Assembly: GCA_963169855.1 (NCBI GenBank)
Contig: CAUJCN010000002.1
Span: 369,154-433,153 of the forward strand
Direction: 5' to 3'
Length of the DNA: 64,000 nucleotides
Origin: Patescibacteria group bacterium
GTDB lineage: Bacteria > Patescibacteriota > Dojkabacteria > J137
The notes under the pieces were generated by a model that was given only the letters and a program-made list of their open reading frames with translations, had not been told where the DNA came from and did no database searches. The position numbers were made by a program, and so were the translations under genes. Numbering within the stretch: the first letter of the stretch is position 1; the number at the start of each line of letters is the position of its first letter. Positions 389 to 59,660 of this stretch are shown here, one piece after another.

Positions 389-1213
389 TTATTGAAGAAA
401 TCCTTCAACTGTTGACTGCATATCTGTGTAACTATACGCTCCAGCAAAGTTAACTTCATTTACGAAGAATCCAGGTGTTCCAGAAACTCCCAATGTTGCT
501 CCCACAGCCGAGTCCGCAGCAATTACTCCATCATACTTACCTTGTTCAATACAAGATTTGATATATGATTTATCGATGTTGTCGGGAAGAATTGCTAACA
601 ATTTATCAATATTTCCTTTGTCATTCTTTACTTGATCGTTAATAACATCGTAACCCTCTGCAGAATAGAATTCATCGTGAGTTTCCCAGAATTTACCGAT
701 ATCTTTTGCACAGTAAAGCGCTTTTGCTGATAATTCTCCATTACCGTGTCCATTTGTATAGAACCACATGTAACTAGCTCTTCCTTCATCAACTAATTTT
801 TTGAATTCAACAACTGGAGCAACATAACTTCCACCATCAGCAACTAATGTAAACTGGCTTCCAGCAGATTTATTTAATTCGCCATTCTTTCCACTAGCAA
901 TATGACAGTACGGACAGCTAGGGTCTGAGAATTCAATGAAAGTGACAGGTTTACTTGCATCTCCAAATTTGATTCCTTCTACACCATTATATAAAGCTAA
1001 AATTTGATCTCTTGTTACTGTTACATTTCCTGCAGCAGTAGTTCCTGTTGTAGTTGTTGTACCTGTTCCTACAGTTACACCACCTTGCAACGATTTTCCA
1101 ATATTACTTAATCCAAAAAACATTCCTGCAGAAAGGATTAGTGCAGAAAATATAATTGCAAAAGGCATGAACAACGATTCAACATTGATTGTTGTGACTT
1201 CTGATTTCTCCAT
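389..1213 (-). CDS. Membrane-anchored thioredoxin-fold thiol-disulfide oxidoreductase (DsbA-like) with a CPYC active-site motif
   Basis: An N-terminal TM helix is followed by a Gly/Thr-rich linker and a thioredoxin-like domain. The motif SCPYCH matches the CxxC of DsbA/BdbD-type extracytoplasmic oxidoreductases. Confidence 0.7.
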   Translation of the reverse strand: MEKSEVTTINVESLFMPFAIIFSALILSAGMFFGLSNIGKSLQGGVTVGTGTTTTTGTTAAGNVTVTRDQILALYNGVEGIKFGDASKPVTFIEFSDPSCPYCHIASGKNGELNKSAGSQFTLVADGGSYVAPVVEFKKLVDEGRASYMWFYTNGHGNGELSAKALYCAKDIGKFWETHDEFYSAEGYDVINDQVKNDKGNIDKLLAILPDNIDKSYIKSCIEQGKYDGVIAADSAVGATLGVSGTPGFFVNEVNFAGAYSYTDMQSTVEGFLQ

Positions 1214-1300
1214 TAATTGATAAATAAAAATTTAAATTAAAACATTATACATGCAATACGTCCGTACAAAAAAAATTATTACGAAATTTTCCGAAAATGT

Positions 1301-1609
1301 TTAAATAAATTCGCAAACCTCTACACATTGAAGTGTACAAATTTCTGCATCAGGGTCATTTCTACAAACAGAAGCGCATTCATTGAATGTTCCGTTTTGT
1401 GATTCGCATTGTGATCGAGATAATCCTTCACATTCTTGTGCAGAATCGATCCATTTTCCTCCATTATTTTTACAAAAATCTTCTGCTGCAACTGCTGAGG
1501 GATCTTTTACATTAACATTATTGATAGTATAAATTGTTGCTAAAGTTACTCCTACAAGCACGGTTAGACCAATTAGCATCAGTGTAATTCTTTTCTGAAA
1601 AATACTCAT
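1301..1609 (-). CDS. Small secreted or anchored cysteine-rich protein (102 aa, 8 Cys in the roughly 60-aa mature region)
   Basis: An N-terminal hydrophobic signal or anchor is followed by an acidic 8-Cys domain (FC, EC, QC, EC, VC, IC, QC, VC). It lies immediately upstream of, and co-oriented with, the DsbA-like gene. Confidence 0.55.
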   Translation of the reverse strand: MSIFQKRITLMLIGLTVLVGVTLATIYTINNVNVKDPSAVAAEDFCKNNGGKWIDSAQECEGLSRSQCESQNGTFNECASVCRNDPDAEICTLQCVEVCEFI

Positions 1610-32983: not shown

Positions 32984-34246
32984 ATGAGAAAAAAGGCTAA
33001 CTTAGAAGCATCTCCCCTATTGAGCAGTCGGGTTAACAGCACAGTACATCCGGATCGACTGGACCAAACAAGATTTACAGAAATTCAACAAAGCGTTACT
33101 CAAGAAAATAGTTCATTCAGAATAATTATTTACATAGTTATTGTGATCGCTATTGGAGTTGGAGCTGCTTTAGTTGTTAGAAATATGTCTGGTGCAGATA
33201 CATCTAGCAACAATACACCTGAACAAAATGATGACGAGGAGACTCCAAATGTTTCGGCATTTAAGGTTTCTTCATCAGTTTTACAAAATTCAGCTGCAAC
33301 AAATGCTCCAAAAGACAGTGATTTTATTTCATCGCTCTCATCTAAAGTTGGGGATACAGCAACTGTACTAAGTACAGCTAAATTAGATTCTTTAACAATT
33401 AATAAATTTCAGTCTTTCGATAGAGCTGAATTAAAATTTTCATCAGCAAAATTACCATCAATTACGATTAATTTCGCTCAGAATAAAAAATCATTATCAA
33501 TTCCTCTAACTGGAATTATGGAAGTTAATTCAGACTTAAACACAACTTCAGCAATTAATAACGTAATTACTCAATACAAATATTCAACTACTGGTCCAAC
33601 AATGTCTTTTGAATTTACAGATACAGTTGGCTATAGACTTTTAGCTCAAGGAAACACTTTGATAATCGACTTTAAAAAAGAAAGTGTAAGTTTAGCAACT
33701 TCAACAACACCAACAACAACTCCAACGACTCCAGAACCCGAGGAAGAGGAAGAAGATGAGACTCCAGTAGCTGATGGATCTAAACCAGCTGCACCTCATT
33801 TAACAAACGAATTTGGAAGAACAAAACAATATATTTCTAGCAATGTGACTGCAAGCACAATTGGATATAACAACTACTTTGTTTATGATGCAAATTCATA
33901 TTTTGAATTTAGTTTCGGTGCTAATGGATTAGCAGGAGCAGCAAATACTCCAAATGCATCAGCAGAATATGTAGAGAAAGATGGAAAGACCTTCATTGAA
34001 ATTGTTATTGAAAATCTGTCATCAGCACCATTCACAGTATCAAGAGGAAAAACTGCAGCCCAAGTTGAAGCAGAAACAGGTCTGAGCGTGTCTGGAGGAA
34101 ATTTTAAAGGAATTTCGCTAATTGACTTTGCAAATGGCAAAGCAACGTATAGAATTGAAGTAAAGAACAAAGCTGACTTTAAATTATTAGTTCAAGATTG
34201 GACTGATACAGCAACTGATGTATTAAGTATACAGATTAAAGATTAA
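32984..34246 (+). CDS. Type II membrane-anchored surface protein (420 aa) with two extracellular beta-rich modules joined by a TTPTTTPTTPEPEEEEEDETP linker
   Basis: A cytoplasmic N-terminus is followed by one TM helix. The exported region is low-complexity and Thr/Ser-rich. Confidence 0.55.
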   Translation: MRKKANLEASPLLSSRVNSTVHPDRLDQTRFTEIQQSVTQENSSFRIIIYIVIVIAIGVGAALVVRNMSGADTSSNNTPEQNDDEETPNVSAFKVSSSVLQNSAATNAPKDSDFISSLSSKVGDTATVLSTAKLDSLTINKFQSFDRAELKFSSAKLPSITINFAQNKKSLSIPLTGIMEVNSDLNTTSAINNVITQYKYSTTGPTMSFEFTDTVGYRLLAQGNTLIIDFKKESVSLATSTTPTTTPTTPEPEEEEEDETPVADGSKPAAPHLTNEFGRTKQYISSNVTASTIGYNNYFVYDANSYFEFSFGANGLAGAANTPNASAEYVEKDGKTFIEIVIENLSSAPFTVSRGKTAAQVEAETGLSVSGGNFKGISLIDFANGKATYRIEVKNKADFKLLVQDWTDTATDVLSIQIKD

Positions 34247-35133
34247 TGAATATTAGAGCCTTAAATAACATCTTGATGATTTGGATTTTCCTAGCATTGA
34301 TAGGAACTTCCTTAGGTTTAGTATTACTAATTCAAAGAAGTAACGCTCCTGCGGATTCTCAAGCTGGAGATCTTCAAGGAGTTTTCTTAGATGTAACTCC
34401 AAAGGATAATCGACATGTTTTTAGTATCGATGAAGTTGCTGAATACCAGCTTACATTCAGAGATACAACTGGAGTAACAAATAGCTTTAACAATTTGAAC
34501 ATAAAAGTTCAGTATCCAAAAGAGTTTCTAGAGCCAGAAGCAGAATTCTTTACTTTAGGATCTGCAATTTTACCTGCAAGCGAATCTGTTGGAGAATGTT
34601 TGGCTGCTGATAGTTCTTATGCATGTGCCGAACTAGATTTAGCAAAAGCTAGTAGTGCTTTATTAAAAGACGGTGAAATCGTAGCAAACATTTTCTTTAA
34701 AGTGATTAATAATACCAGAGAACCTGAAGAACTTAGATTAGGTGTAGAAAATACAGCTTCATTTAACGAAGACACTAATTCATATGTTTCTTCTGCAAAT
34801 AACGAAGTAAAAGTCCCTTTGATTGGTAGTACTGTTCTATTTAAGGTTCAGAGCAAGTGTTTAGGAGACTACAATGGACTTAAATCAGGAGGAAAAGAAG
34901 TCGATATCGAAGATCTAGCAATGTTTGGAAGCAAGTACGGAACTTTACTGAACGAGAAAGATATATTCAATTTTGATTTAGTTTCTAACGCTCCGAGTTG
35001 TGAAAACTGCTCTGCTCAATTAGACGAACAAGATTTAAAGATAATTTTATGCAACTACGCAAGTAATAGCTGTAGATTCGATCGAGACAACGTTCCTACT
35101 CAGGAAGAGATTTTAAATTTACAATGTGAATAA
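34246..35133 (+). CDS. Secreted protein with a cohesin-like beta-sandwich N-terminal domain and a Cys-rich, dockerin-like C-terminal module
   Basis: Signal/TM at the N-terminus. The cohesin-like pattern is LNIKVQYPKEFLE...IVANIFFKVINNT. The C-terminal GDYNGLKSGGKEVDIEDLAMFGSKYG / NFDLVSN...DEQDLKIIL resembles dockerin repeats. Contains eight Cys. Its ATG overlaps the preceding stop (ATGA). Confidence 0.5.
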   Translation: MNIRALNNILMIWIFLALIGTSLGLVLLIQRSNAPADSQAGDLQGVFLDVTPKDNRHVFSIDEVAEYQLTFRDTTGVTNSFNNLNIKVQYPKEFLEPEAEFFTLGSAILPASESVGECLAADSSYACAELDLAKASSALLKDGEIVANIFFKVINNTREPEELRLGVENTASFNEDTNSYVSSANNEVKVPLIGSTVLFKVQSKCLGDYNGLKSGGKEVDIEDLAMFGSKYGTLLNEKDIFNFDLVSNAPSCENCSAQLDEQDLKIILCNYASNSCRFDRDNVPTQEEILNLQCE

Positions 35134-42113: not shown

Positions 42114-42686
42114 TTATAATCTGCTAGTTCTTAATAATGACAATGCCTGCACAGTTGCGTACGCGTTTGTGATTTTATTGTCTGCTCCTAAAATCTTTCC
42201 AAGAACATCACTAATTCCTGCTGCTTCTGCAACAAGTCTCATAGATGAACCTGCAACGATACCTGTTCCTGGCGAAGCTGGTTTCAATAACACTCTTGAT
42301 GCTTTGAACTTTGTTAAAACTTCGTGAGGAATAGTATTTCCTTTTAGGTTTACATGAATCATGTTTTTCTTTGCGTTATTTACAGCTTTAGTCTGAGCTG
42401 ATCTAACATCGTCTCCTTTTCCGATTCCTAGTCCAACTTTTCCTTTTCTGTCTCCAACAACTACAAATACAGATAATTTCATTCTTCTTCCTCCCTTATA
42501 CATCTTTGTGACTCTGTTTACATCGATAATTTTGATATCGAATGGATCTTGTTCCTTTGGTTTGCTTTCTCTATCTCTTTTTTTGAAATTTCTTCCTCCT
42601 CTGTCTTCTCTGTTGTTTCTTACAGCTGGTTGAGCTGTTTCTACTTCAGTTGTTTCGATTTTTACTTCTTTAGTATTTTCTTCCAT
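42114..42686 (-). CDS. rpsE: Ribosomal protein S5 with a charged N-terminal extension
   Basis: dsRBD-like domain plus the S5 C-domain (VVGDRKGKVGLGIGKG). Confidence 0.9.
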   Translation of the reverse strand: MEENTKEVKIETTEVETAQPAVRNNREDRGGRNFKKRDRESKPKEQDPFDIKIIDVNRVTKMYKGGRRMKLSVFVVVGDRKGKVGLGIGKGDDVRSAQTKAVNNAKKNMIHVNLKGNTIPHEVLTKFKASRVLLKPASPGTGIVAGSSMRLVAEAAGISDVLGKILGADNKITNAYATVQALSLLRTSRL

Positions 42687-42688
42687 AT

Positions 42689-43042
42689 TTAAATGTTAAT
42701 TCCTGCTGATCTAATACCTTCAGCTACAGCTTTTACGTTTCCGTGATATTTGTATCCACTTCTGTCGAATACTCCAGCCTTTATTCCTAAATCAACAAGT
42801 TTTTTTCCTAAATCTTTTCCTACTTCTTCAGAAGTTTCTACTCCTCTTTTCTTTGATTTAACGATTGTATCATTAGATGTTGCAATAGTTACTCTATTTA
42901 CATCATCGATAGCTTGTATATAGATATGTTTTCCAGATCTAAATACTGTTAATCTTGGCTTAGTTGCAGAACCAGAAACTGTCTTTCTGATGTGCATTTT
43001 TCTTTTTACTTTGTTTATGTTTTTTCTAATTACTGCTCTCAT
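42689..43042 (-). CDS. rplR: Ribosomal protein L18
   Basis: PRLTVFRS...IYAQ pattern. Confidence 0.9.
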   Translation of the reverse strand: MRAVIRKNINKVKRKMHIRKTVSGSATKPRLTVFRSGKHIYIQAIDDVNRVTIATSNDTIVKSKKRGVETSEEVGKDLGKKLVDLGIKAGVFDRSGYKYHGNVKAVAEGIRSAGINI

Positions 43043-43044
43043 GT

Positions 43045-43599
43045 TTATTTAGCTGATTTAGTTGATTTTTTCTTAATTCTTTCACCTTTGTATCGAATAC
43101 CCTTTCCTTTGTATGGTTCCGGCTCTCTAAAACTTCTGATTTTAGCTGCAGCCTCTCCAACTTTCTGTTTGTCGTATCCAGTTACTTTAATGTTTACTTG
43201 TTCGTCTACAGTTACTACAACTCCAACTGGTGGCTCATAGTTAATCTTGTGAGAATAACCTAAAGATAATACCAATTTCGTTCCTTGTACTTCTCCTCTA
43301 TAACCGATTCCTACAATTTCCAAATCTTTCTGGTATCCTTCAGTAACTCCAACAACCATATTGTTAATTAAAGTTCTGTATAATCCAAAGAAAGATGCAT
43401 TTTGCAAAGTATCTGATTCCTTACTCACTTTAACAACTCCATCTTCAACAACTGCATTAGCACCGAATCTAAGTGATTGGCTCAATGATCCTTTAGGACC
43501 TGAAACAAAAACTTCTTGGTGACCAAAGTCTCCACCCTTCTTTACTTCTACTGTTACTCCTGCTGGGATTGTTATTTCTAATTTACCAATTCTAGACAT
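43045..43599 (-). CDS. rplF: Ribosomal protein L6. The start is trimmed to MSRIGK to remove the overlap with rpsH.
   Basis: MSRIGKLEITIPAGV is the typical L6 N-terminus. Two-domain L6 pattern. Confidence 0.9.
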   Translation of the reverse strand: MSRIGKLEITIPAGVTVEVKKGGDFGHQEVFVSGPKGSLSQSLRFGANAVVEDGVVKVSKESDTLQNASFFGLYRTLINNMVVGVTEGYQKDLEIVGIGYRGEVQGTKLVLSLGYSHKINYEPPVGVVVTVDEQVNIKVTGYDKQKVGEAAAKIRSFREPEPYKGKGIRYKGERIKKKSTKSAK

Positions 43600-43600
43600 C

Positions 43601-43993
43601 TTAGAAAATATAACAAATGTATTCACCTCCAACTTTGTTCTGAACAGCTGTCTTGTCTGTAACTACTCCGTTTGGTGTAGAGAAGATTGCAACTCCCATT
43701 CCTCGCATAATTGGTTTAATTTCTTTGTATCCTCTGTATTTTCGAATTCCAGGTTTTGACACTCTTACTAATTCTCTAATAGCAGATTCTCCGTTTACAT
43801 ATCTCAAAGTCACATTAAGTGTATTCTGAGGTTTTGTATCTTCAACATCAAAGCTTTCAATGAATCCTTGTTCTTTTAAGATTTCGCTTATTCGAACAAT
43901 CATTTTAGTTGAAGGAATAGAAACAGTATCCTGTTTTTTCTCTATTGCATTTCTTAATCTTGTCAGGTAATCACCTATTGGGTCTCCAACCAT
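43601..43993 (-). CDS. rpsH: Ribosomal protein S8
   Basis: DPIGDYLTRLRNA N-terminus. Confidence 0.9.
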   Translation of the reverse strand: MVGDPIGDYLTRLRNAIEKKQDTVSIPSTKMIVRISEILKEQGFIESFDVEDTKPQNTLNVTLRYVNGESAIRELVRVSKPGIRKYRGYKEIKPIMRGMGVAIFSTPNGVVTDKTAVQNKVGGEYICYIF

Positions 43994-44003
43994 TTCTTAA
44001 ATA

Positions 44004-44216
44004 TTAAAAGCTATATTTTGCTACTCCAGGTAATTCTCCTGAAAGTGCTAATTTTCTAAAACAAATTCTGCACATCTTGAATCTTCGAACATAACTTCTT
44101 GGTCTTCCGCAAATCGCACATCTGTGTTTCAATCTCACTGTTTTAAAATGAGTATTTCCATTTTGAGTCTTGCCCAAGTTCTTTTTGTATTTTGCTATCG
44201 CTGCTTTGTTTGCCAT
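44004..44216 (-). CDS. rpsZ: Ribosomal protein S14, type Z (zinc-binding)
   Basis: CxxC...CxxC (CAICGR ... CRICFR) in a roughly 70-aa protein. Confidence 0.85.
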
Positions 44217-44276
44217 AAAAACCTTTGAATTATATCATCAAAAATCCTAAATCTGAATACAGATTTACTAAATAAA

Positions 44277-44828
44277 TTATTTTCTCTTTCTTTCGAAAGG
44301 CATTCCTAACAATTCCAAAAGTCTGAATGCTTGCTCCTTATTCTTTGCAGTTGTGTTTACAACAACTTGTAAAGATCTGATCTTCACTAATGTCGATGTA
44401 TCGATTTCAGGGAAAATAGTATGTTCCTTAATTCCCATAGTGTAATTTCCTCTAGAGTCGAAAGATTTAGCGGAAACTCCTCTAAAGTCCTTAATTCTAG
44501 GTAAAGTTACATTCACTAGTTTGTCTAAAAAGCTCCACATCTTTTCACCTCTTAGGGTTACTTTGACACCGTTGGGAGTACCTTCTCTTAATTTAAAGTT
44601 TGCAATAGCTTCTGCTGAGTTTACAATCACTGGTTTTTGTCCAGTAATTTGCTGAATAACAGCACTCATTTCATCCGCTACAGCTGTGTTTGTCTTGTAT
44701 TCACTTCCAATTCCTGCGTTCACAACAATTTTGCTTAATGTTGGAATAGCAAAAGTATTATCAATTCCAAATTCTGATTTTAGTTTTGCTGCAATTTCTT
44801 TTTTGTATGTTTCTTTTAAATCTGACAT
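44277..44828 (-). CDS. rplE: Ribosomal protein L5
   Basis: Conserved L5 core (NxxxxPxxxKIVVNxG). Confidence 0.9.
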   Translation of the reverse strand: MSDLKETYKKEIAAKLKSEFGIDNTFAIPTLSKIVVNAGIGSEYKTNTAVADEMSAVIQQITGQKPVIVNSAEAIANFKLREGTPNGVKVTLRGEKMWSFLDKLVNVTLPRIKDFRGVSAKSFDSRGNYTMGIKEHTIFPEIDTSTLVKIRSLQVVVNTTAKNKEQAFRLLELLGMPFERKRK

Positions 44829-44833
44829 GTTAT

Positions 44834-45166
44834 TTATTTAACTAATTCTCCGCTTTTCTTAAAAAATCTTACTTTCTTTCCAGTTTTTTCATCAACTTTA
44901 ATTCCAACTCTACTAGGCTTATTAGTCTTAGTATCTAGGATCATTACGTTTGATGCATCAATTGGCTTTTCCATTTCGATGATTCCACCTTTGATTCCTA
45001 ACTGTTGATTAGGTTTCTGAGCTTTCTTTACAATATTCACACCTTTGATCACAACTTTAACTTTCTTTGTTTCCTTGTCTACAATAACTCGTTCGATTTC
45101 ACCTTGCTTTCCAGCATCTTTTCCTCTCATCACTTGTACTTTGTCTCCTTTTAAAATCTTATTCAT
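44834..45166 (-). CDS. rplX: Ribosomal protein L24
   Basis: KOW motif KGDKVQVMRGKDAGKQG. Confidence 0.85.
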   Translation of the reverse strand: MNKILKGDKVQVMRGKDAGKQGEIERVIVDKETKKVKVVIKGVNIVKKAQKPNQQLGIKGGIIEMEKPIDASNVMILDTKTNKPSRVGIKVDEKTGKKVRFFKKSGELVK

Positions 45167-45172
45167 ATACTT

Positions 45173-45556
45173 TTATAAAACTTCTGGTGCCATTGAAATA
45201 ATTTTATTGAATCCTTTGTCCTTAAGCTCTCTAGCAATTGGACCAAAAATTCTACTTCCCTTAGGATCTTTTGTTTCCTTTGCGATAATCGCTGCTGCGT
45301 TTTCGTCAAATTTAATATGTGATCCATCCTTTCTTCTCATTTCCTTCTTACATCTGATTACAACAGCATGAACAACATCTCCCTTTTTATAGTTAGAGTT
45401 TGGTAATGCTTTCTTAACTGATGCACTGATAATATCTCCTACATATCCGAATTTAGAGAAAGTTCTTCCTTTCTTAACTCCTAATACCTGGATAACCATA
45501 ATTTCCTTTGCTCCTGTATTATCTGCTACTTTTAGTCTTGTTAATTTCTGTACCAT
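45173..45556 (-). CDS. rplN: Ribosomal protein L14
   Basis: [20 protein letters not shown]-terminus. Confidence 0.9.
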
Positions 45557-45560
45557 GTTA

Positions 45561-45806
45561 TTATTTAATTTTTTTTACAAATACCCAACTCTTTCGTGGG
45601 GAAATCTTTCTTCCTTCCTGAATGTCTACAACATCTCCTACTGCTAATTCTTTTGAATCTGCAATATGCACAATGTAATTCTTGTGTTCTTTAACAGTTT
45701 TTCCGTATTTTGGGTGAGCGTATTTCTTTTCTACTTTAACCTTAACTGTGTTAGGAGTAGAAATCTTTACAACTGTTCCTGTTAATTGTTTTTTCTTAGT
45801 TTCCAT
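45561..45806 (-). CDS. rpsQ: Ribosomal protein S17
   Basis: OB-fold pattern GTVVK...KTVKVKV. Confidence 0.85.
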
Positions 45807-45987
45807 TTTCTTTAGTTAATAATCTTGCGATTTCTTTTTTTAATTTTTTAACTTTAGATGTGTTTTTTTCCTGACCCATCTTAACATCAAGAGTTAGTTT
45901 TACTAATTCTTTTTTGTATTCAGCAACACTCTTTACACCTGTATCATTGCTTTCTGCTTTTGTCTTTTTTACTGCTTTCTCTGCCAT
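45796..45987 (-). CDS. rpmC: Ribosomal protein L29
   Basis: Position between rplP and rpsQ, plus a helical Lys-rich sequence. Confidence 0.7.
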   Translation of the reverse strand: MAEKAVKKTKAESNDTGVKSVAEYKKELVKLTLDVKMGQEKNTSKVKKLKKEIARLLTKENGN

Positions 45988-45990
45988 GTT

Positions 45991-46407
45991 TTAGAATGTA
46001 ATGTGTTTGTTAATTACTCTTGTCTTTAAAGATAACTTTCTTGATGCTCTTTCTAAAGCTTCTCTACATGTTGCTTCTGGTAGTCCTCCGATCTCGAATA
46101 AAACTAATCCAGGTTTAACAACTGCAACAAAGTGATCAACTGGTCCTTTACCTCCTCCTCTTACAACTTCGTCACTTTTCTTAGTAACTGGTTTGTGTGG
46201 GAAAAGTTTGATCCAAATCTTTCCTTTTCTTGCTGTAAAGTTAACCATAGCCTTTCTAGCTGATTCAATTTCTCTTGCATGTACCCATCCTCTTTCTAAT
46301 GATTGTAATCCAAAGTCTCCGTATGCAACTTCTGATCCTCTCAAAGCAATACCGTTCATGCTTCCTCTAAATTCTTTTGTATATTTTCGTTTCTTTGGTT
46401 GTAACAT
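45991..46407 (-). CDS. rplP: Ribosomal protein L16
   Basis: MLQPKKRKYTKEFRG N-terminus. Confidence 0.9.
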   Translation of the reverse strand: MLQPKKRKYTKEFRGSMNGIALRGSEVAYGDFGLQSLERGWVHAREIESARKAMVNFTARKGKIWIKLFPHKPVTKKSDEVVRGGGKGPVDHFVAVVKPGLVLFEIGGLPEATCREALERASRKLSLKTRVINKHITF

Positions 46408-46412
46408 AATGT

Positions 46413-47069
46413 TTAGTCAATCGCGTATGTATTTTTTTCTCCTTTATTAATCCAAACCTTAATTCCATGTTTTCCAGCTCTAGGTACTTGTCCTTCTACA
46501 TTAGCGTAGTCAATATCAGCTCTAATAGTGTGTCTTGGAACAAATCCCCAAGATACTTTTTCTACTCTAGCCATATCAGCTCCCTTAATTCTTCCTCCTA
46601 CCCAAATTGTGATTCCTTTAATCAATCCTGTAGCTTTTGCTGCATCTGCTGCTTTTTGCATAGCCATCTTTGGATTAATTCTCTTCTCACATTGAGCAGC
46701 AATGTTTTCTGCAACTAGTTTAGCAATGATGTCAGGGTTTTTAACCTCGAAAGGTTTCACCTCAACTGGTTGATTCACTAGTTTTGTTAATTCATCTTTA
46801 AATGCTGTAATTCCAGCACCGCTTCTTCCGATTACAACTCCAGGTCTTGCTACGTATAATTCAACAACAATCTTATTAACCATTCTCTTAATAACAACAG
46901 AAGCTACGCCTGCTGCTTTTAGCTTTTCGTTTACAAGCTTCTTAATCTTTCTGTCTACCAAGAATTTGTCTGCATAAGTTTCCTTATTGGCATACCATCT
47001 TGATGTCCAATTTTTATTTACTCCAACTCTAAATCCTACTGGATTTACTTTGTGCGAACCTCTAGCCAT
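46413..47069 (-). CDS. rpsC: Ribosomal protein S3
   Basis: KH domain plus C-terminal domain, with a GHKVNPVGFR-like N-terminus. Confidence 0.9.
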   Translation of the reverse strand: MARGSHKVNPVGFRVGVNKNWTSRWYANKETYADKFLVDRKIKKLVNEKLKAAGVASVVIKRMVNKIVVELYVARPGVVIGRSGAGITAFKDELTKLVNQPVEVKPFEVKNPDIIAKLVAENIAAQCEKRINPKMAMQKAADAAKATGLIKGITIWVGGRIKGADMARVEKVSWGFVPRHTIRADIDYANVEGQVPRAGKHGIKVWINKGEKNTYAID

Positions 47070-47180
47070 AATGTTGTTAATTTATTAAGTTGATTAAATG
47101 CTTGTTTAATAAAACCAGCATTGCAATCCTAATACAATTTATGTGAATAAATGCGATAGGATTATATCATTTAGATACCT

Positions 47181-47636
47181 TTATTTGCTACTAGTTTTAG
47201 ACTTTGTAGCTGTTTTTTTAACGGTCTTAGAGACCTCTTTCTTTCCTTCTTCCTTAGACTTTTCCTCTTCTTTATCTTCAGTTTTTGATTTTTTTGAAAC
47301 TATTTCATCACTAACCACAACAGTTAGGTTTGTTACCCCTCTATTCCAGATCGAATATCCTGCTCCTCTTGCCTTTGGATGTCCGTGGCTAATTCTTATT
47401 GCTCCTTTATCAACTCTTAATTCTTTAATGTATAAATCATTAACAGACGCACCTTTGTTAGTTGCATTAGCTGCTGCCGATTTCAATGCCTTATAAACAT
47501 GTACCGCTGTGCCTTTGTTCATGAACTTTAAAACATTCAATGCTTCGTATACTTTCATTCCCTTAACAACTTCTGCAGGGATTCGCATCTTCTTCATTGA
47601 TTTTCCTATATTGTTTATTATTGCTTTGCTCTCCAT
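47181..47636 (-). CDS. rplV: Ribosomal protein L22 with a roughly 40-aa Lys/Glu-rich C-terminal tail
   Basis: L22 core (AVHVYKALKSAAANA...ISHGHPKARG). Confidence 0.85.
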   Translation of the reverse strand: MESKAIINNIGKSMKKMRIPAEVVKGMKVYEALNVLKFMNKGTAVHVYKALKSAAANATNKGASVNDLYIKELRVDKGAIRISHGHPKARGAGYSIWNRGVTNLTVVVSDEIVSKKSKTEDKEEEKSKEEGKKEVSKTVKKTATKSKTSSK

Positions 47637-47649
47637 ATTATTTATTTAA

Positions 47650-47943
47650 TTATTTTGCACCAGGTGCTGCTGCTGCGATCTTACCTTTTTTACTATGTCC
47701 ACTAAACTTTCTTGTGAATGAAAATTCTCCAAGTTTGTGTCCTACCATAGATTCTGTAACGAATACTTTATTAAAGTATTTTCCATTATGAACATCAAAA
47801 GTTAATCCAACCATTTCTGGAGAAATAGTAGATGCTCTTGACCATGTCTTAATAGACTTGTTTCCTCCTGCAATCTTTGCTGCTTTCACTTTTTTCATTA
47901 AAGATTCTTCAATAAAAGGACCTTTCTTTAAACTTCTAGACAT
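47650..47943 (-). CDS. rpsS: Ribosomal protein S19
   Basis: [11 protein letters not shown]-terminus and GHKLGEF. Confidence 0.9.
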
Positions 47944-47948
47944 ATTTC

Positions 47949-48812
47949 TTAAATAATAGTTTTAGTTTTTTTAAATTTATTTGTTTCAGGTCTTCTCCTG
48001 ATGATGAACTTAGTTGTTGGGTTCTTCATTCTTCTTGTTCTCTTTCCGATCATGTTACCCCATGGGTCTGACTTAGGTCCTCCTGTTCCGTGTCTACCTC
48101 CCTTTCCTTGTCCTCCAGCGTGAGGGTGTTTTGTAGACATAGCTACTCCTCTAACTGTTGGTCTAACTCCCTTCAATCTGTTTCTTCCAGCTTTTCCTAA
48201 TTTTACATTCTTCTGATCTTGATTACTTACAAATCCGATAGATGCAAAACATTCTTCTTTTACCAATCTTAATTCTCCACTTGGCATTTTCAACTGAGTA
48301 TATCCTTGGTCTCCTCCCATCACTTGAATTCTTGTTCCAGCTGATCTAGCAATTTTTGCCCCACCGTTTGGATACAGTTCAACAGAGTGAACAAAAGTTC
48401 CCTGAGGAATATTCTTTAGTTTTAATGAGTTTCCTAATGAAACTGGTGCATTTTCTGAGTTAATTACTTTGTCTCCAATCTTTAATCCATCTGGTGCTAG
48501 AATATACTTTCTATCTCCATCAACATACTTTACCAAAGCAATGAATGCTGTTCTATTTGGATCGTATTCAACTGTTTCAATAGTTCCTTCTACGTTCTGC
48601 TTAACTCTTTTAAAATCGATAACTCTGTATGATTTCTTAACTCCTGCCCCCTGGTGTCTCATTGTAATTCGACCTAGGTTATTTCTTCCACCCTTGCTTC
48701 TCAATTCTTCAGTTAGGCCTCTAAAAGGTCTTACTTTTGACAATTCTTTTCTGTCAATTAGCACTGCATGTCTTACGCCTGCACTTGTTGGTTTAAATTT
48801 TCTTAGTGCCAT
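47949..48812 (-). CDS. rplB: Ribosomal protein L2
   Basis: GGGQKQ-like [12 protein letters not shown] motif and the N-terminal RNA-binding domain. Confidence 0.92.
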
Positions 48813-48825
48813 ATCTATTAATTAA

Positions 48826-49104
48826 TTATTTCTCTAATAATTCAAATTTATCTTTTTCAGAAAGTTTGAAAAGCATGATTTTTCTATCTTTATGCTTTAC
48901 AGTATTTCCAGATACTCTATCTCTTTTGTACTTTCCCATTCTACTTGTTGATTTCACTTCAACTACCTTTACTCCGTAAATACTTTCAAATTCTCTTTTT
49001 GCATTTGTCTTAGTAGCATTTACATCTACTTCGAAAGATACATATTTATTTGTCTTGTATTCTGTAATTGATTTTTCTGTTACAACTGGTTTCTTTAGTA
49101 TCAT
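48826..49104 (-). CDS. rplW: Ribosomal protein L23
   Basis: Size, position and pattern (ILKKPVVTEKS). Confidence 0.85.
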   Translation of the reverse strand: MILKKPVVTEKSITEYKTNKYVSFEVDVNATKTNAKREFESIYGVKVVEVKSTSRMGKYKRDRVSGNTVKHKDRKIMLFKLSEKDKFELLEK

Positions 49105-49721
49105 AAACTTCTTTCCTTTAAGTTATTTAATGCTGACTCTTCTATAATCAGGTGTCCTGCGTTTAGAAGATCATAAACATTTACTTCTCCTGAAAATACA
49201 ACTTTGACATTCTGTAAGTTTGCGAATGCTTTCATAACATTCTCTTCAACTTTACTTGTTACTAAAGTTACTTTCTTAGGGGAGTTAAACGCCTCTAAAA
49301 TCTTAGTAGCATCCTTAGCAGATGGCTTTACATCGAAATTTTCTACAACAGAAACTGATCCATCTTTGAAAATCTTACTTAAAGCTGTCTTCAACGCTAC
49401 TTTCTTGAATTTCTTATTCAAATCCTTACTCCAATTAACTTCACTTGAAGGTCCGTGTGCTCTTCCTCCTCCTTTCCAAATTGGTGATCTATTTGATCCC
49501 GCTCTAGCATTACCTGTTCCTTTTTGTGCCCATGGTTTCTTTCCTCCTCCGCTTACTTCTGCTTTAGTCTTTGTATTAGCATTTCCTTGTCTCTGATTTG
49601 CCAAGTAAACAAAAACATATTGAGTTAATACTCTTGTATTTTGTTCCGCAGCAAAGATTGAATCATCTAATTCAATTTCTTTTACTTTCTTATTTTTCAA
49701 ATCTACTAAATCTGTTTTCAT
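49101..49721 (-). CDS. rplD: Ribosomal protein L4
   Basis: Position plus the GGGKKPWAQKGTGNARAGS motif. Confidence 0.85.
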   Translation of the reverse strand: MKTDLVDLKNKKVKEIELDDSIFAAEQNTRVLTQYVFVYLANQRQGNANTKTKAEVSGGGKKPWAQKGTGNARAGSNRSPIWKGGGRAHGPSSEVNWSKDLNKKFKKVALKTALSKIFKDGSVSVVENFDVKPSAKDATKILEAFNSPKKVTLVTSKVEENVMKAFANLQNVKVVFSGEVNVYDLLNAGHLIIEESALNNLKERSL

Positions 49722-49728
49722 ATTCTAA

Positions 49729-50334
49729 TTACTTTGATTTAATAACTACATAAGTACCTCTTGCTCCTGGAATAGAACCTTTGATTCCGATAATTCCATT
49801 TGCTACATCAATGTGTTCAACTTTTAATCCTAAGATTGTCTTAGCTCTTGTTCCCATGTGTCCTCCCATTTTCTTTCCTTTGAAAACTCTACCAGGAATA
49901 GCTCTTGATCCTAATGATCCTGGTGCTCTTTCTCTGTCAGATGAACCGTGTGTTCTAGGCATTCCTGCGAATCCCCATCTCTTAACAACTCCTTGAAATC
50001 CTTTACCTTTTGTTACTCCTGATACAGAAACTTTATCTCCTAATTCGAATACATCAGCGTTTAATTTCTGTCCTACTTCAAAATTTACAGCTTCAGAAAG
50101 TGTAAATGTTTCTTTGAATCTTGGAACAAAGTTAATTGCTTTGTAAATTCCTTCTTCTGCCTTAGTAGTTGCTTTTCTAGAATCTTTAGCAAGTTCATAT
50201 TGATTCTTAGCTCCTGATTTTCCTACCTTACTTACAACATTACCTGAAACATCAAATACAGTTACTACAACTGCTTCTCCGTTGTCTTTGTAAATTTGTG
50301 TCATTCCGATTTTCTTTGCTAGGATTGCTTTCAT
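49729..50334 (-). CDS. rplC: Ribosomal protein L3
   Basis: MKAILAKKIGMTQI N-terminus and FQGVVKRWGF. Confidence 0.9.
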   Translation of the reverse strand: MKAILAKKIGMTQIYKDNGEAVVVTVFDVSGNVVSKVGKSGAKNQYELAKDSRKATTKAEEGIYKAINFVPRFKETFTLSEAVNFEVGQKLNADVFELGDKVSVSGVTKGKGFQGVVKRWGFAGMPRTHGSSDRERAPGSLGSRAIPGRVFKGKKMGGHMGTRAKTILGLKVEHIDVANGIIGIKGSIPGARGTYVVIKSK

Positions 50335-50345
50335 AAAATTCTCAA

Positions 50346-50648
50346 TTAACTTTTGATCTGAACCTCTATACCTGCAGGAAGTTGCATATGAGAAAGAGCT
50401 TCAATCGTCTTTACATTAAAATCAATTACATCTAAAAGTCTTGTATGTTCAAATAACTTGAAATGCTCCTTATGTTTACCATCGATATGTGGTCCTCTGT
50501 GAATAGCCATGCTCCATTTCTTTGTAGGAAGTGGGATTGGACCTTTTACTTTAGCTCCAGCATCTATTACGGCCTTTGCAATATCCATCGTTGCTTTATC
50601 AACAACTTTGAAGTCAAATCCTTTTATTTTAACTCTTATTTTTTGCAT
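50346..50648 (-). CDS. rpsJ: Ribosomal protein S10
   Basis: IRVKIKGFD...GPIPLPTK pattern. Confidence 0.9.
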   Translation of the reverse strand: MQKIRVKIKGFDFKVVDKATMDIAKAVIDAGAKVKGPIPLPTKKWSMAIHRGPHIDGKHKEHFKLFEHTRLLDVIDFNVKTIEALSHMQLPAGIEVQIKS

Positions 50649-50703
50649 TCTTATTTATTTAAAGATCTATCTTCTATTCTGTGCCTTCGATTATAACAAA
50701 CAA

Positions 50704-50747
50704 AGGCTCAGAATAAAAGCCCCGTAATAGAATTTTCTATTACGGGG
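50704..50747 (-). terminator. Intrinsic terminator or attenuator between tuf and rpsJ: an 11-bp stem (ccccgtaatag/ctattacgggg) followed by a U-tract on the minus strand
   Basis: Perfect inverted repeat followed by GCTTTTATT in the transcribed orientation. Confidence 0.55.
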
Positions 50748-50761
50748 ACTCTTAGTTTCTA

Positions 50762-51955
50762 TTAGCTTACAATTGATGTGATTACTCCAGCTCCAACTGT
50801 TCTTCCTCCTTCTCTAATAGCGAAGGTCATCTGCTCTTCTAGAGCAACTTTAGTTCCCAATCTGATTTCTGCTGTGATGTTATCACCAGGCATAACTAAT
50901 TGAGTTCCTTCTGCAAGAATAACTTCTCCAGTTACATCTGCAGTTCCGATGTAGAATTGTGGTTTGTATCCAGATCCAAATCCTGTATGTCTTCCACCTT
51001 CGTCTTTTGACAAGATGTAAACTTCAGCTTTGAATGCAGTATGAGGTTTAATTGAACCCTTAGCTGCTAATACCTGACCTCTTTCGATATCTTCTCTCTT
51101 GATTCCTCTGATTAACAATCCAACGTTATCTCCAGCCTGTCCTTCAGTCATCTGCTTCTTGAACATTTCAACTCCAGTAATAGTTACTTCTTTTGCAGTG
51201 TCCATCAAACCGATTTGCTCTACAACGTCGTTAACTTTAACTTTTCCTCTTCCGATTCTTCCAGTTGCAACTGTTCCTCTTCCTTCGATTGAGAACACGT
51301 CTTCAACCTGCATTAGGAATGGCTTGTCAACTTCTCTTTCTGGCATTGGGATAGTTTCGTCCATAGCCGCAAGTAACGCTGCCATAGTTTCGTCTCCGTC
51401 CTTTTCTCCAGTAGTTCCGTATAAAGCAGATCCTACTACGAATGGAACTTTGTCTGCATCGTATCCATACTTCTTCATTAGGTCCTTCATTTCTTCCTTG
51501 ATCAATTCAAGTAAGTCCATGTCTGTATTGTCATCAAATCTATTGATGAAAACAACCAAGTGCTTTACTCCAACTTGATTAGCAAGTAATAAGTGCTCCT
51601 TAGTCTGAGGCATAGGTCCGTCAGCTGCTGAAACAACGATAATAGCTCCGTCCATTTGAGCTGCACCAGTAATCATGTTCTTGATGTAGTCCTTGTGTCC
51701 TGGACAGTCGATATGTGCGTAATGTCTTGTCTCTGATTCATATTCAACGTGTGAAGATGCAACAGTAACGATCTTGTTAGATCCAGCTCTAGCAATACCT
51801 CCCTTAGCGATATCAGAATAGGATTTTCCTGAGTTCTGCCATCCCTTTCTTTGAGAGTATGAAACTAAAGCAGCTGTCAAAGTTGTCTTTCCGTGGTCGA
51901 TGTGACCTAGAGTTCCGACATTTACGTGTGGCTTTGATCTTACGAAGTCTGCCAT
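50762..51955 (-). CDS. tuf: Elongation factor Tu
   Basis: G1 [11 protein letters not shown]3 DCPGH, G4 NKFD (NRFD here), and full-length EF-Tu domains 2 and 3. Confidence 0.95.
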
Positions 51956-55490: not shown

Positions 55491-55573
55491 TGCTGACGGA
55501 GGGAGTCGAACCCTCACACCTTGCGGTACTAGTTCCTAAGACTAGCGCGTATACCAGTTCCGCCACGTCAGCA
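55491..55573 (-). tRNA. tRNA-Leu with anticodon TAG (class II, short variable arm)
   Basis: Hand-folded cloverleaf: acceptor GCTGACG/CGTCAGC, anticodon stem CTAGT/ACTAG with loop CTTAGGA, T-arm GAGGG-TTCGACT-CCCTC, and variable-arm hairpin ACC-GCAA-GGT. Confidence 0.75.
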
Positions 55574-59312: not shown

Positions 59313-59660
59313 ATGGCATACGATTATCAAGAAGAGGAGAAAAGAAAGGATAATTTGATAAAAGAAATCGGAGATAAAATTAAAACTGCTCGAGTTGAAA
59401 GCAAAATGTCTCAGCTTCAAGTTGCTGTATCGCTAGGAGTTTCAGATAAAACAATTAGCGGATATGAATCTGGAAGAATCGCCCCACCAATCGATAAGTT
59501 AATTCAAGTCGCTGAAATATTCCGAAAACCAATCACTTACTTTCTTAGTAACGACCCTAGAGATTACAAGGTTTCTTCACGTTTAAAAGCAATCGAGCAA
59601 ATTCTAAAAGATGTTAGAAAGCAAATGGAGGAAATCAAAGAAATCGCCGGAGTTGATTAA
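59313..59660 (+). CDS. XRE-family helix-turn-helix transcriptional regulator (about 115 aa). The start is trimmed to the internal Met so that it clears truB.
   Basis: HTH region SQLQVAVSLGVSDKTISGYESG. The longer ORF-track version overlaps truB on the opposite strand. Confidence 0.7.
   Translation: MAYDYQEEEKRKDNLIKEIGDKIKTARVESKMSQLQVAVSLGVSDKTISGYESGRIAPPIDKLIQVAEIFRKPITYFLSNDPRDYKVSSRLKAIEQILKDVRKQMEEIKEIAGVD

Follow-up and report, generated by a model that had tools for sequence, protein, structure and literature searches.

Within a 64,000-nucleotide stretch of DNA from a Patescibacteria group bacterium (contig CAUJCN010000002.1, positions 369,154 to 433,153; the whole stretch is hereafter the window), a gene for a 102-aa protein with eight cysteines is located directly upstream of a gene for a membrane-anchored DsbA-type oxidoreductase. 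The C-terminal 59 residues of the small protein are one copy of a widespread, unannotated extracytoplasmic 8-Cys domain, and its pairing with DsbA is lineage-specific synteny, not a dedicated foldase-substrate module. The explanation favoured here, to which an even chance of being correct is given, is that the protein is a surface-tethered, DsbA-oxidised module resembling the TIL inhibitors, possibly itself a protease inhibitor, and not a toxin served by a private foldase. In a preliminary description of the region the two genes had been regarded as an oxidative-folding module dedicated to a secreted peptide of knottin- or defensin-like spacing, possibly a toxin, bacteriocin or signal. The reality of the genes, the predicted export of their products and a plausible co-transcription have stood; the dedicated module, the knottin or defensin fold and the toxin role have not.

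The small gene occupies positions 1301-1609 of the (-) strand, stop codon included, and is a real, conserved gene. It was called as an open reading frame (ORF) starting with ATG, the identical protein is present on 9 assembled contigs (one of 818 kb), and the reading frame is kept in the homologues of relatives, so that the conservation on which the earlier interpretation depended was borne out. An N-terminal anchor followed by an acidic 8-Cys region, as previously described, was confirmed from the ORF and its sequence. The anchor is a hydrophobic stretch of 22 residues (residues 8-29; 1523-1588, (-) strand) directly after K6-R7, identified by a hydropathy scan and covered by a helix at residues 2-30 in the AlphaFold2 (AF2) model. 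Residues 36-102, the C-terminal 67, carry a calculated net charge of about -9, and the domain itself (residues 44-102; 1304-1480, (-) strand) is recognised by the family hidden Markov model (HMM) at E = 1.4e-36, with cysteines at residues 46, 60, 68, 78, 82, 91, 95, and 99. In the lineage relatives L007, L065, L067, and L072 (L numbers designate individual loci), the corresponding transmembrane (TM) stretches are likewise at least 22 residues long and without a lipobox, and the anchor of the window protein is probably an uncleaved type II signal-anchor. Its N-terminus is a long TM helix lacking a lipobox, and 'surface-tethered' suits the protein better than 'secreted'.

The extent of the domain family was assessed by a profile search covering 1.84 billion cluster representatives (50%-identity clusters), which matched 1028 representatives at E <= 1e-3, 779 of them also at the stricter E <= 1e-10; each protein carries 1-4 copies of the domain. 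In the first search, four relatives were found that share an invariant core of ~55 residues with the pattern C-x4-G-x-W-x5-EC-E...C...G-x-FNECAS-x-CR-x2-P-x-AE-x-CT-x-QC-x3-C. All eight cysteines are invariant, with exactly eight per domain, in 169/169 extracted domains, among which G51, W53, E59, S80, R83, and V96 are the near-invariant positions other than cysteine. Scanning of species-representative genomes with two peptide patterns located 58 loci, a tally that is a lower bound and is skewed to the conserved motif. According to their labels, 20 of these belong to Candidate Phyla Radiation (CPR) bacteria, 19 to DPANN archaea, 4 to Nitrosopumilaceae, and 4 to metagenome-assembled genomes (MAGs) labelled Methanosarcinales, the rest being Gammaproteobacteria (4), Acidobacteriota (1) and unclassified (6); Endozoicomonas accounts for 2 of the 58, the cultured Endozoicomonas numazuensis included. 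No match to the domain was found in Pfam or NCBIfam when the small protein and family members were scanned, and the source name of members is 'hypothetical protein' in every case. Literature searches found no description of the domain, nor was any relative present among IMG/VR viral contigs or PLSDB plasmids.

The architectures of the family indicate a module of the cell exterior. A hydrophobic N-terminus is present in 144 of 154 family proteins and a lipobox-like motif in 85, the domain is located at the extreme C-terminus in 91/154, and its mean net charge is -7.9. Short stand-alone forms resembling the 102-aa protein are common, including in DPANN. Among 150 members, the accompanying inhibitor domains assigned by Pfam are Kazal_1 (32), Pacifastin_I (10), and Emfourin (2), while DUF4377 (9), DUF333 (8), ZnuA (4), and Gmad2 (4) are the other partners; fusions to DUF4430, Omp85, and PG_binding_1 also occur. 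In the manner of mosaic multi-inhibitor proteins containing Kazal and pacifastin domains, approximately one fifth of the family thus combines the 8-Cys domain with Kazal, and some members with Pacifastin_I or Emfourin, whereas the window protein carries the domain alone. Nothing relevant on Kazal or TIL domains or inhibitor mosaics in CPR or DPANN organisms was found in the literature searched.

Several individual members of the family display features of their own. Additional Cys-containing modules in mosaic members are also without a Pfam match, and two such modules recur beside the 8-Cys domain, 'F-x-x-C-x-x-A-G-x-P-V-M-E-S-Y-P-R-Q-C' and 'G-G-x-R-D-x-H-G-C-x3-A-G-Y-x-W', carried by L018, L028, L030, L032, L035, L036, L056, L061, and L064. 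An 'ESYPRQC' alignment used as an hhalign control scored 21.6, an artefact of its having included the beginning of the 8-Cys domain, and was discounted. In a Nanoarchaeia MAG (L022, 5581-7146), a ZnuA-type solute-binding protein has the domain inserted in its His/Asp/Glu-rich loop, and similar His-rich flanks surround it in P0003. In an Acidobacteriota MAG (L045, 5878-7275), an N-terminal 8-Cys domain precedes an Omp85-superfamily barrel (6.1e-9). The member from Endozoicomonas numazuensis DSM 25634 (L051, 5752-6177) is a 141-aa lipoprotein with the domain, encoded in a cultured, genetically tractable gammaproteobacterium. In-frame TGA codons occur within the domain in L049 (6001-6156) and L059 (3626-3898), at positions where the family has Gly; the codon in L049 is found in 'KIG*NFNEC' at the invariant G73. 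As read from these sequences, the codons are consistent with recoding of TGA as Gly (code 25). L059 is labelled Peribacteria, yet displays the same feature.

A confident fold is predicted for the domain, and sequence profiles suggest a relationship with TIL inhibitors. An AF2 model built with a 150-sequence alignment reached a mean predicted local distance difference test (pLDDT) score of 94.5 for residues 36-102, with 94-98 per 10-residue block in this region of the full-length model. Its elements follow in the order helix, short hairpin, helix, strand (74-80), long loop (81-94), and strand (95-100). When a 108-sequence profile of the domain was compared by hhalign with AMCI (1ccv), the TIL-type chymotrypsin inhibitor AMCI-1 of Apis mellifera (PF01826, MEROPS I8), a match was obtained at Prob 94.9% and E 4.3e-8, with 42% identity across 31 columns; for a 7-sequence TIL alignment the values were Prob 50% and E 1.6e-4. 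The real score of 23.7 exceeded those of all 300 column-shuffled TIL alignments (mean 10.2, maximum 20.1), and controls with Kazal, BPTI, EGF, knottin, beta-defensin-1, WAP, and pacifastin gave Prob 3.3% or less. Moreover, Pfam TIL is the top sub-threshold match in 83/108 domains, and 1ccv is the sole non-Kazal PDB family that recurred in all three profile searches (3/3), with a non-significant E each time. The other PDB matches were Kazal domains contributed by fused partners and OmTx2 (E 0.11), the latter judged to be chance.

In the hhalign alignment C78, C82, C91, C95, and C99 are placed on TIL Cys II, III, V, VI, and VII, five cysteines in the same order and spacing, and the core C-x3-C ... 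C-x3-C-x3-C with a reactive loop between Cys V and VI is that of TIL domains. The likeness extends to the flanks within the C-terminal 32 residues, FNECASVC...ICTLQCVEVC here and FNTCGSAC(APTC)...ICTMQCRIGC in AMCI. Consequently C91-T-L-Q-C95 (1325-1339, (-) strand) is aligned to C28-T-M-Q-C32 of AMCI, with Leu93 as the putative P1 residue; the scissile bond of AMCI we take to be Met30-Gln31, with Met30 as P1. The family column 93, aligned to Met30, contains M in 69, L in 50, K in 11, Q in 10, A in 9, and E in 8 of 169 domains, a spectrum that plausibly suits a P1 residue. In Ascaris-type inhibitors the reactive site lies in the long loop joining strands 1 and 2, and this loop is flanked by the disulfides Cys II-VI and III-V (PMC3606364). 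The strand, long loop and strand predicted by the model here would correspond to that reactive-site-bearing unit. Furthermore, the C-terminal six-Cys module occurs alone in L063 and L064, archaeal and bacterial proteins, so that C46-C60 would form a separate pair and the other six cysteines would pair among themselves. The most likely disulfides are C46-C60 and, by analogy with TIL domains, C68-C99, C78-C95, and C82-C91. A search for family variants lacking one Cys pair yielded fragments only. The domain differs from TIL in its extra N-terminal half, with a helix, the C-x4-G-x-W hairpin and one extra disulfide, and in being prokaryotic, membrane-tethered and very acidic, with an unusually conserved loop.

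The downstream gene (389-1213, (-) strand) encodes a 274-aa protein that is assigned as a BdbD/MdbA-type DsbA from its Pfam matches, closest structures and homologues. The thresholds of both Thioredoxin_4 (PF13462; 60.2 bits, 3.7e-16, cutoff 23.2) and DSBA (PF01323; 25.7 bits, 1.1e-5, cutoff 25.6) were exceeded. One N-terminal hydrophobic segment, whose flanking charges are ambiguous for topology, is followed by a Thr/Gly-rich linker and the active site C100-P-Y-C103 (905-916, (-) strand), which aligns with CPSC of BdbD. The earlier recognition of an anchored thioredoxin-fold protein with a CPYC motif is therefore upheld, and both products of the pair are predicted to be extracytoplasmic, as had been supposed. 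The closest solved structures are BdbD (3eu3) and the DsbA of C. diphtheriae (4pwp), at just ~25-27 bits. As in BdbD of Bacillus subtilis and the actinobacterial MdbA/DsbA proteins, a Thioredoxin_4/DSBA fold, a CxxC motif, an N-terminal anchor and a Thr-Pro cis-proline loop are observed, G-T-P-G of the window DsbA being aligned with A-T-P-T of BdbD. Unlike those enzymes, it has a long Thr/Gly-rich stalk, and the positions of its second Cys pair are not aligned to known structural disulfides.

A search for homologues of this DsbA returned 1764 at E <= 1e-5, many of them 50-79% identical over the full length, named 'DsbA family protein' at source and mostly from Candidatus Dojkabacteria; the nearest MAGs to the window are labelled Saccharibacteria or Dojkabacteria, and the source genome is accordingly that of a CPR bacterium. 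The other exported proteins of the window have even Cys counts (4, 8, 2, 2, and 20), a pattern to be expected of a DsbA that acts on the secretome as a whole, and this DsbA looks like the general enzyme of the lineage. Two of these Cys-rich exported proteins had been pointed out previously, and both were verified. That encoded at 34246-35133 ((+) strand) has 295 aa, 8 Cys, and an N-terminal TM segment, and that at 59657-62395 ((-) strand) has 912 aa, a signal-like N-terminus, and 20 Cys, 13 of them within residues 38-127. Neither has a Pfam match or an 8-Cys domain, and both are likely further DsbA substrates.

The conservation of the pairing was analyzed from both sides. From the side of the domain, a proximity test by tblastn and an HMM from 120 orthologues placed such a DsbA within 6 kb of 2/58 loci, the closest relatives L007 and L009, and a Pfam scan of the 108 immediate neighbours of 8-Cys loci found no recurrent thioredoxin, DsbB or VKOR family. 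From the side of the enzyme, the 8-Cys gene is located upstream on the same strand in 7/14 contexts of DsbA orthologues: the window itself and, with decreasing DsbA identity to it, L007 (79%), L009 (72%), L065 (70%), L067 (63%), L066 (62%), and L072 (53%). The co-occurrence looked for in relatives was thus found in half of the DsbA contexts and was missing at the other 56 of the 58 domain loci. All seven positive contexts have MgsA upstream and a 54-60-aa ORF, a 122-aa ORF, and AspRS downstream, and this shared wider synteny makes the pairing indistinguishable from inherited gene order. L009, L065, and L066 encode a fusion of the domain with DUF4430, and a gene for a DUF6580 membrane protein separates it from the DsbA gene, while in L069 (58% DsbA identity) a TM-DUF4430 protein without the 8-Cys domain is found in an otherwise conserved cassette. 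In L068, L070, L071, and L073-L075, DsbA belongs to another block, UvrA-Mfd-DsbA, which has no 8-Cys gene. Within this one lineage, then, the linkage is real, but it is no general property of either family; the locus is a variable cassette of a TM-anchored 8-Cys protein with or without DUF4430, an optional DUF6580 membrane protein, and DsbA. Dedicated pairs of a DsbA and its substrate are represented by DsbL/DsbI with AssT in uropathogenic E. coli and SrgA with PefA in Salmonella. Here too a thiol oxidase gene adjoins the gene of an exported protein predicted to be disulfide-bonded. Those systems, however, employ an additional, specialised DsbA paralogue and conserve the pair as a unit, whereas the window DsbA looks general and its pairing dissolves outside one syntenic block.

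Two further gene associations were observed around these DsbA orthologues. A TM-anchored DUF4430 protein, whether or not it carries the 8-Cys module, forms a conserved pair with a multi-pass DUF6580 membrane protein (L009 5887-7214; L065 2755-3977; L066 2708-3942; L069 2259-3333), while the window and L007 have neither the DUF4430 domain nor the DUF6580 gene. DUF4430 forms the C-terminal part of transcobalamins (PMC4350170), and the pair may be a capture system for corrinoids or another ligand; nothing relevant was found in the literature on DUF6580. In five of the UvrA-Mfd-DsbA contexts, a TM-anchored Cyt-b5 protein with an HPGG motif and two conserved Cys is encoded 3-30 nt after the DsbA stop (L070 4386-4829, L071 4371-4760, L073 3884-4300, L074 3886-4329, L075 3878-4312). 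This spacing is much tighter than that of the 8-Cys and DsbA genes, and no Cyt-b5 homologue is present in the window. The Cyt-b5 protein could be the partner that re-oxidises DsbA where no DsbB or VKOR is seen.

Regarding transcription, the 8-Cys and DsbA genes are separated by an AT-rich spacer of 87 nt (1214-1300, (-) strand), in which a terminator scan detected no terminator-like site and a folding test no stable fold (z = +0.82 vs shuffles). The sole terminator-like hairpin on this strand is located 3' of the DsbA gene (370-339), with 14 pairs of which 6 are G-C, and is the probable end of the transcription unit. With both genes on one strand, 87 nt between them and no intervening hairpin, their co-transcription is plausible, which agrees with the preliminary description.

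Several observations weigh against the TIL-like, DsbA-oxidised explanation. The window domain scores 10.2 bits against Pfam TIL, below the gathering cutoff of 24.5, the best TIL E among 108 members is 0.055, and Foldseek gave no significant match, its sole defensin match having E = 9.9. The ten-Cys TIL pattern (I-VII, II-VI, III-V, IV-X, VIII-IX) contrasts with the eight cysteines here; equivalents of TIL Cys IV and VIII-X are missing from the alignment, and the N-terminal half differs. The term 'TIL-like' is used in preference to TIL domain because of this sub-cutoff score, the 8 rather than 10 Cys, and the absence of the C-terminal hairpin. The pairing of C68-C99, C78-C95, and C82-C91 is a map drawn by analogy, not a measured one. 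Residues 75-96 are unusually conserved, with R83 in 168, T92 in 141, and Q94 in 136 of 169 domains, which counts against the inhibitor reading because the loops of canonical inhibitors tend to be hypervariable. Proteins unlinked to proteases carry the domain as well, with ZnuA, DUF4430, Omp85, or PG_binding_1, and the ZnuA, DUF4430, and Omp85 fusions suggest a module of more generic use in binding or stabilisation. With respect to the oxidase, a search of the 79 ORFs in the 64-kb window turned up no DsbB, BdbC, or VKOR candidate, unlike the situation of BdbD. Finally, promoter-like hexamers lie within the spacer, and the common transcript is a prediction.

The alternatives were weighed against the same evidence. 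A dedicated oxidative-folding module, in which DsbA mainly folds the 8-Cys protein as a secreted effector, would agree with two genes on one strand separated by 87 nt without a terminator, and with the presence of the 8-Cys gene upstream of DsbA in half of the contexts, down to 53% identity. It is nevertheless quite improbable: the linkage in all seven contexts may be inherited gene order given their wider synteny, six of the 14 orthologues belong to the UvrA-Mfd-DsbA block without an 8-Cys gene, L069 keeps the cassette without the domain, nearly all family loci lack such a DsbA within 6 kb, and no thioredoxin-family enrichment was seen among the neighbours. An enzyme with so many homologues, in a window whose other even-Cys exported proteins also need an oxidase, does not resemble a private foldase. 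The idea that the domain is released from the cell as a toxin, bacteriocin, antimicrobial or signalling peptide of the knottin or defensin type, which the small size, eight cysteines and export signal had suggested, is highly improbable. Antimicrobial defensins are cationic whereas the domain is strongly acidic; the TM anchor here and the lipobox of more than half of the relatives imply retention on the cell; the domain usually forms part of larger, mosaic proteins; and genes for an exporter, immunity, modification or processing are not found nearby, nor is there a recurrent transporter neighbour in relatives. Phage and plasmid collections gave no match. The proposed fold fares no better, with hhalign Prob of 0.2% against EETI-II and 0.6% against hBD-1, no significant Foldseek match, and a predicted alpha + beta fold with a long loop.

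Binding of a cation or metal, with some cysteines reduced or with Zn2+ or Ca2+ held on an acidic surface, is, like the dedicated module, quite improbable. The insertion in the His/Asp/Glu-rich ZnuA loop (4/150 members, as in L022), the His-rich flanks in P0003, the negative charge, and the conserved R-N-D-P-D-A-E motif are in its favour, and many of the host organisms are anaerobes, but members are also found in the aerobic Nitrosopumilaceae. Eight invariant cysteines with fixed spacing in exported proteins point to disulfides, as do the confident compact AF2 fold, the DsbA neighbour and the TIL-like nested C-x3-C...C-x3-C, and no known metal-binding family was matched in Pfam or NCBIfam. A generic stable structural or adaptor module without inhibitor activity, acting as a stalk or as a binder of surface or host ligands, is unlikely, and it draws on the diverse fusions to DUF4430, ZnuA, DUF333, DUF4377, Gmad2, PG_binding_1, and Omp85, the frequent placement at the extreme C-terminus, and the high conservation of non-Cys residues. 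In a variant of this explanation, the domain would have originated as the N-terminal part of a TM-8Cys-DUF4430 protein working with DUF6580, possibly in corrinoid capture, and the window copy would be a version that lost DUF4430; the order TM-8Cys-DUF4430, DUF6580, DsbA in L009, L065, and L066 and the transcobalamin relationship of DUF4430 (PMC4350170) fit such an origin. The stand-alone form, however, is kept in diverged genomes (the window, L007, L067, L072) and is common in DPANN, and its maintenance implies that the domain functions by itself. Furthermore, a purely structural role leaves unexplained both the specific, order-preserving TIL match and the occurrence of three other types of inhibitor domain in family members.

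In the favoured explanation of a surface-tethered, TIL-like module, the 102-aa protein would, on strong indications, be inserted N-in/C-out through its uncleaved signal-anchor and display the acidic domain on the cell surface, with four disulfides very likely formed in it. These would be introduced by the general oxidase of the cell, this DsbA, whose gene lies 87 nt downstream and is probably co-transcribed; the protein is very probably a substrate of this enzyme. The C-terminal six-Cys half may then be a TIL/Ascaris-type scaffold that presents C-T-L93-Q-C as a canonical protease-binding loop, and the protein may be a surface-tethered serine-protease inhibitor protecting the envelope of an ultra-small CPR cell. 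This inhibitor hypothesis is the best single functional guess because of the TIL alignment and because Kazal, pacifastin, and emfourin modules accompany the domain in some members, and it is held tentatively, at somewhat less than an even chance. A broader proposal is more doubtful: that the module is an undescribed prokaryotic branch of the TIL/Ascaris inhibitors, spread horizontally across domains of life among the ultra-small episymbionts of the CPR and DPANN groups and into a few other organisms, and used, alone or with Kazal or pacifastin domains, as a surface shield against host or environmental proteases. Were the domain of true TIL type, an inhibitor family known from animals in the sources consulted (PDB matches; PMC3606364) would extend into prokaryotes, and defence against proteases would be suggested as a need common to episymbionts. 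CPR bacteria and DPANN archaea attach to other cells, and their surface proteins are almost uncharacterised. A compact domain that spans more than 1000 sequence clusters, is shared by bacterial and archaeal episymbionts and is missing from domain databases offers a handle on this surface biology. The DsbA pairing, by comparison, is ordinary and mainly shows the reliance of a quinone-poor lineage on extracytoplasmic disulfide formation.

Some other features of the window, whose G+C content is 34.8%, were also recorded. The genes around the 102-aa ORF are SSB, DsbA, a 54-aa TM ORF, and AspRS. The 54-aa ORF (142-306, (-) strand) has a single TM segment and no Cys and is located 3' of DsbA beyond the terminator-like hairpin; a counterpart of 57-60 aa was called at the same position in L066, L067, L069, and L072. 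At 42114-51955 ((-) strand), a run of short co-directional ORFs has the appearance, judged by layout, of a ribosomal-protein operon. The sole Rfam match in the window is a single tRNA gene at 55491-55572 ((-) strand).

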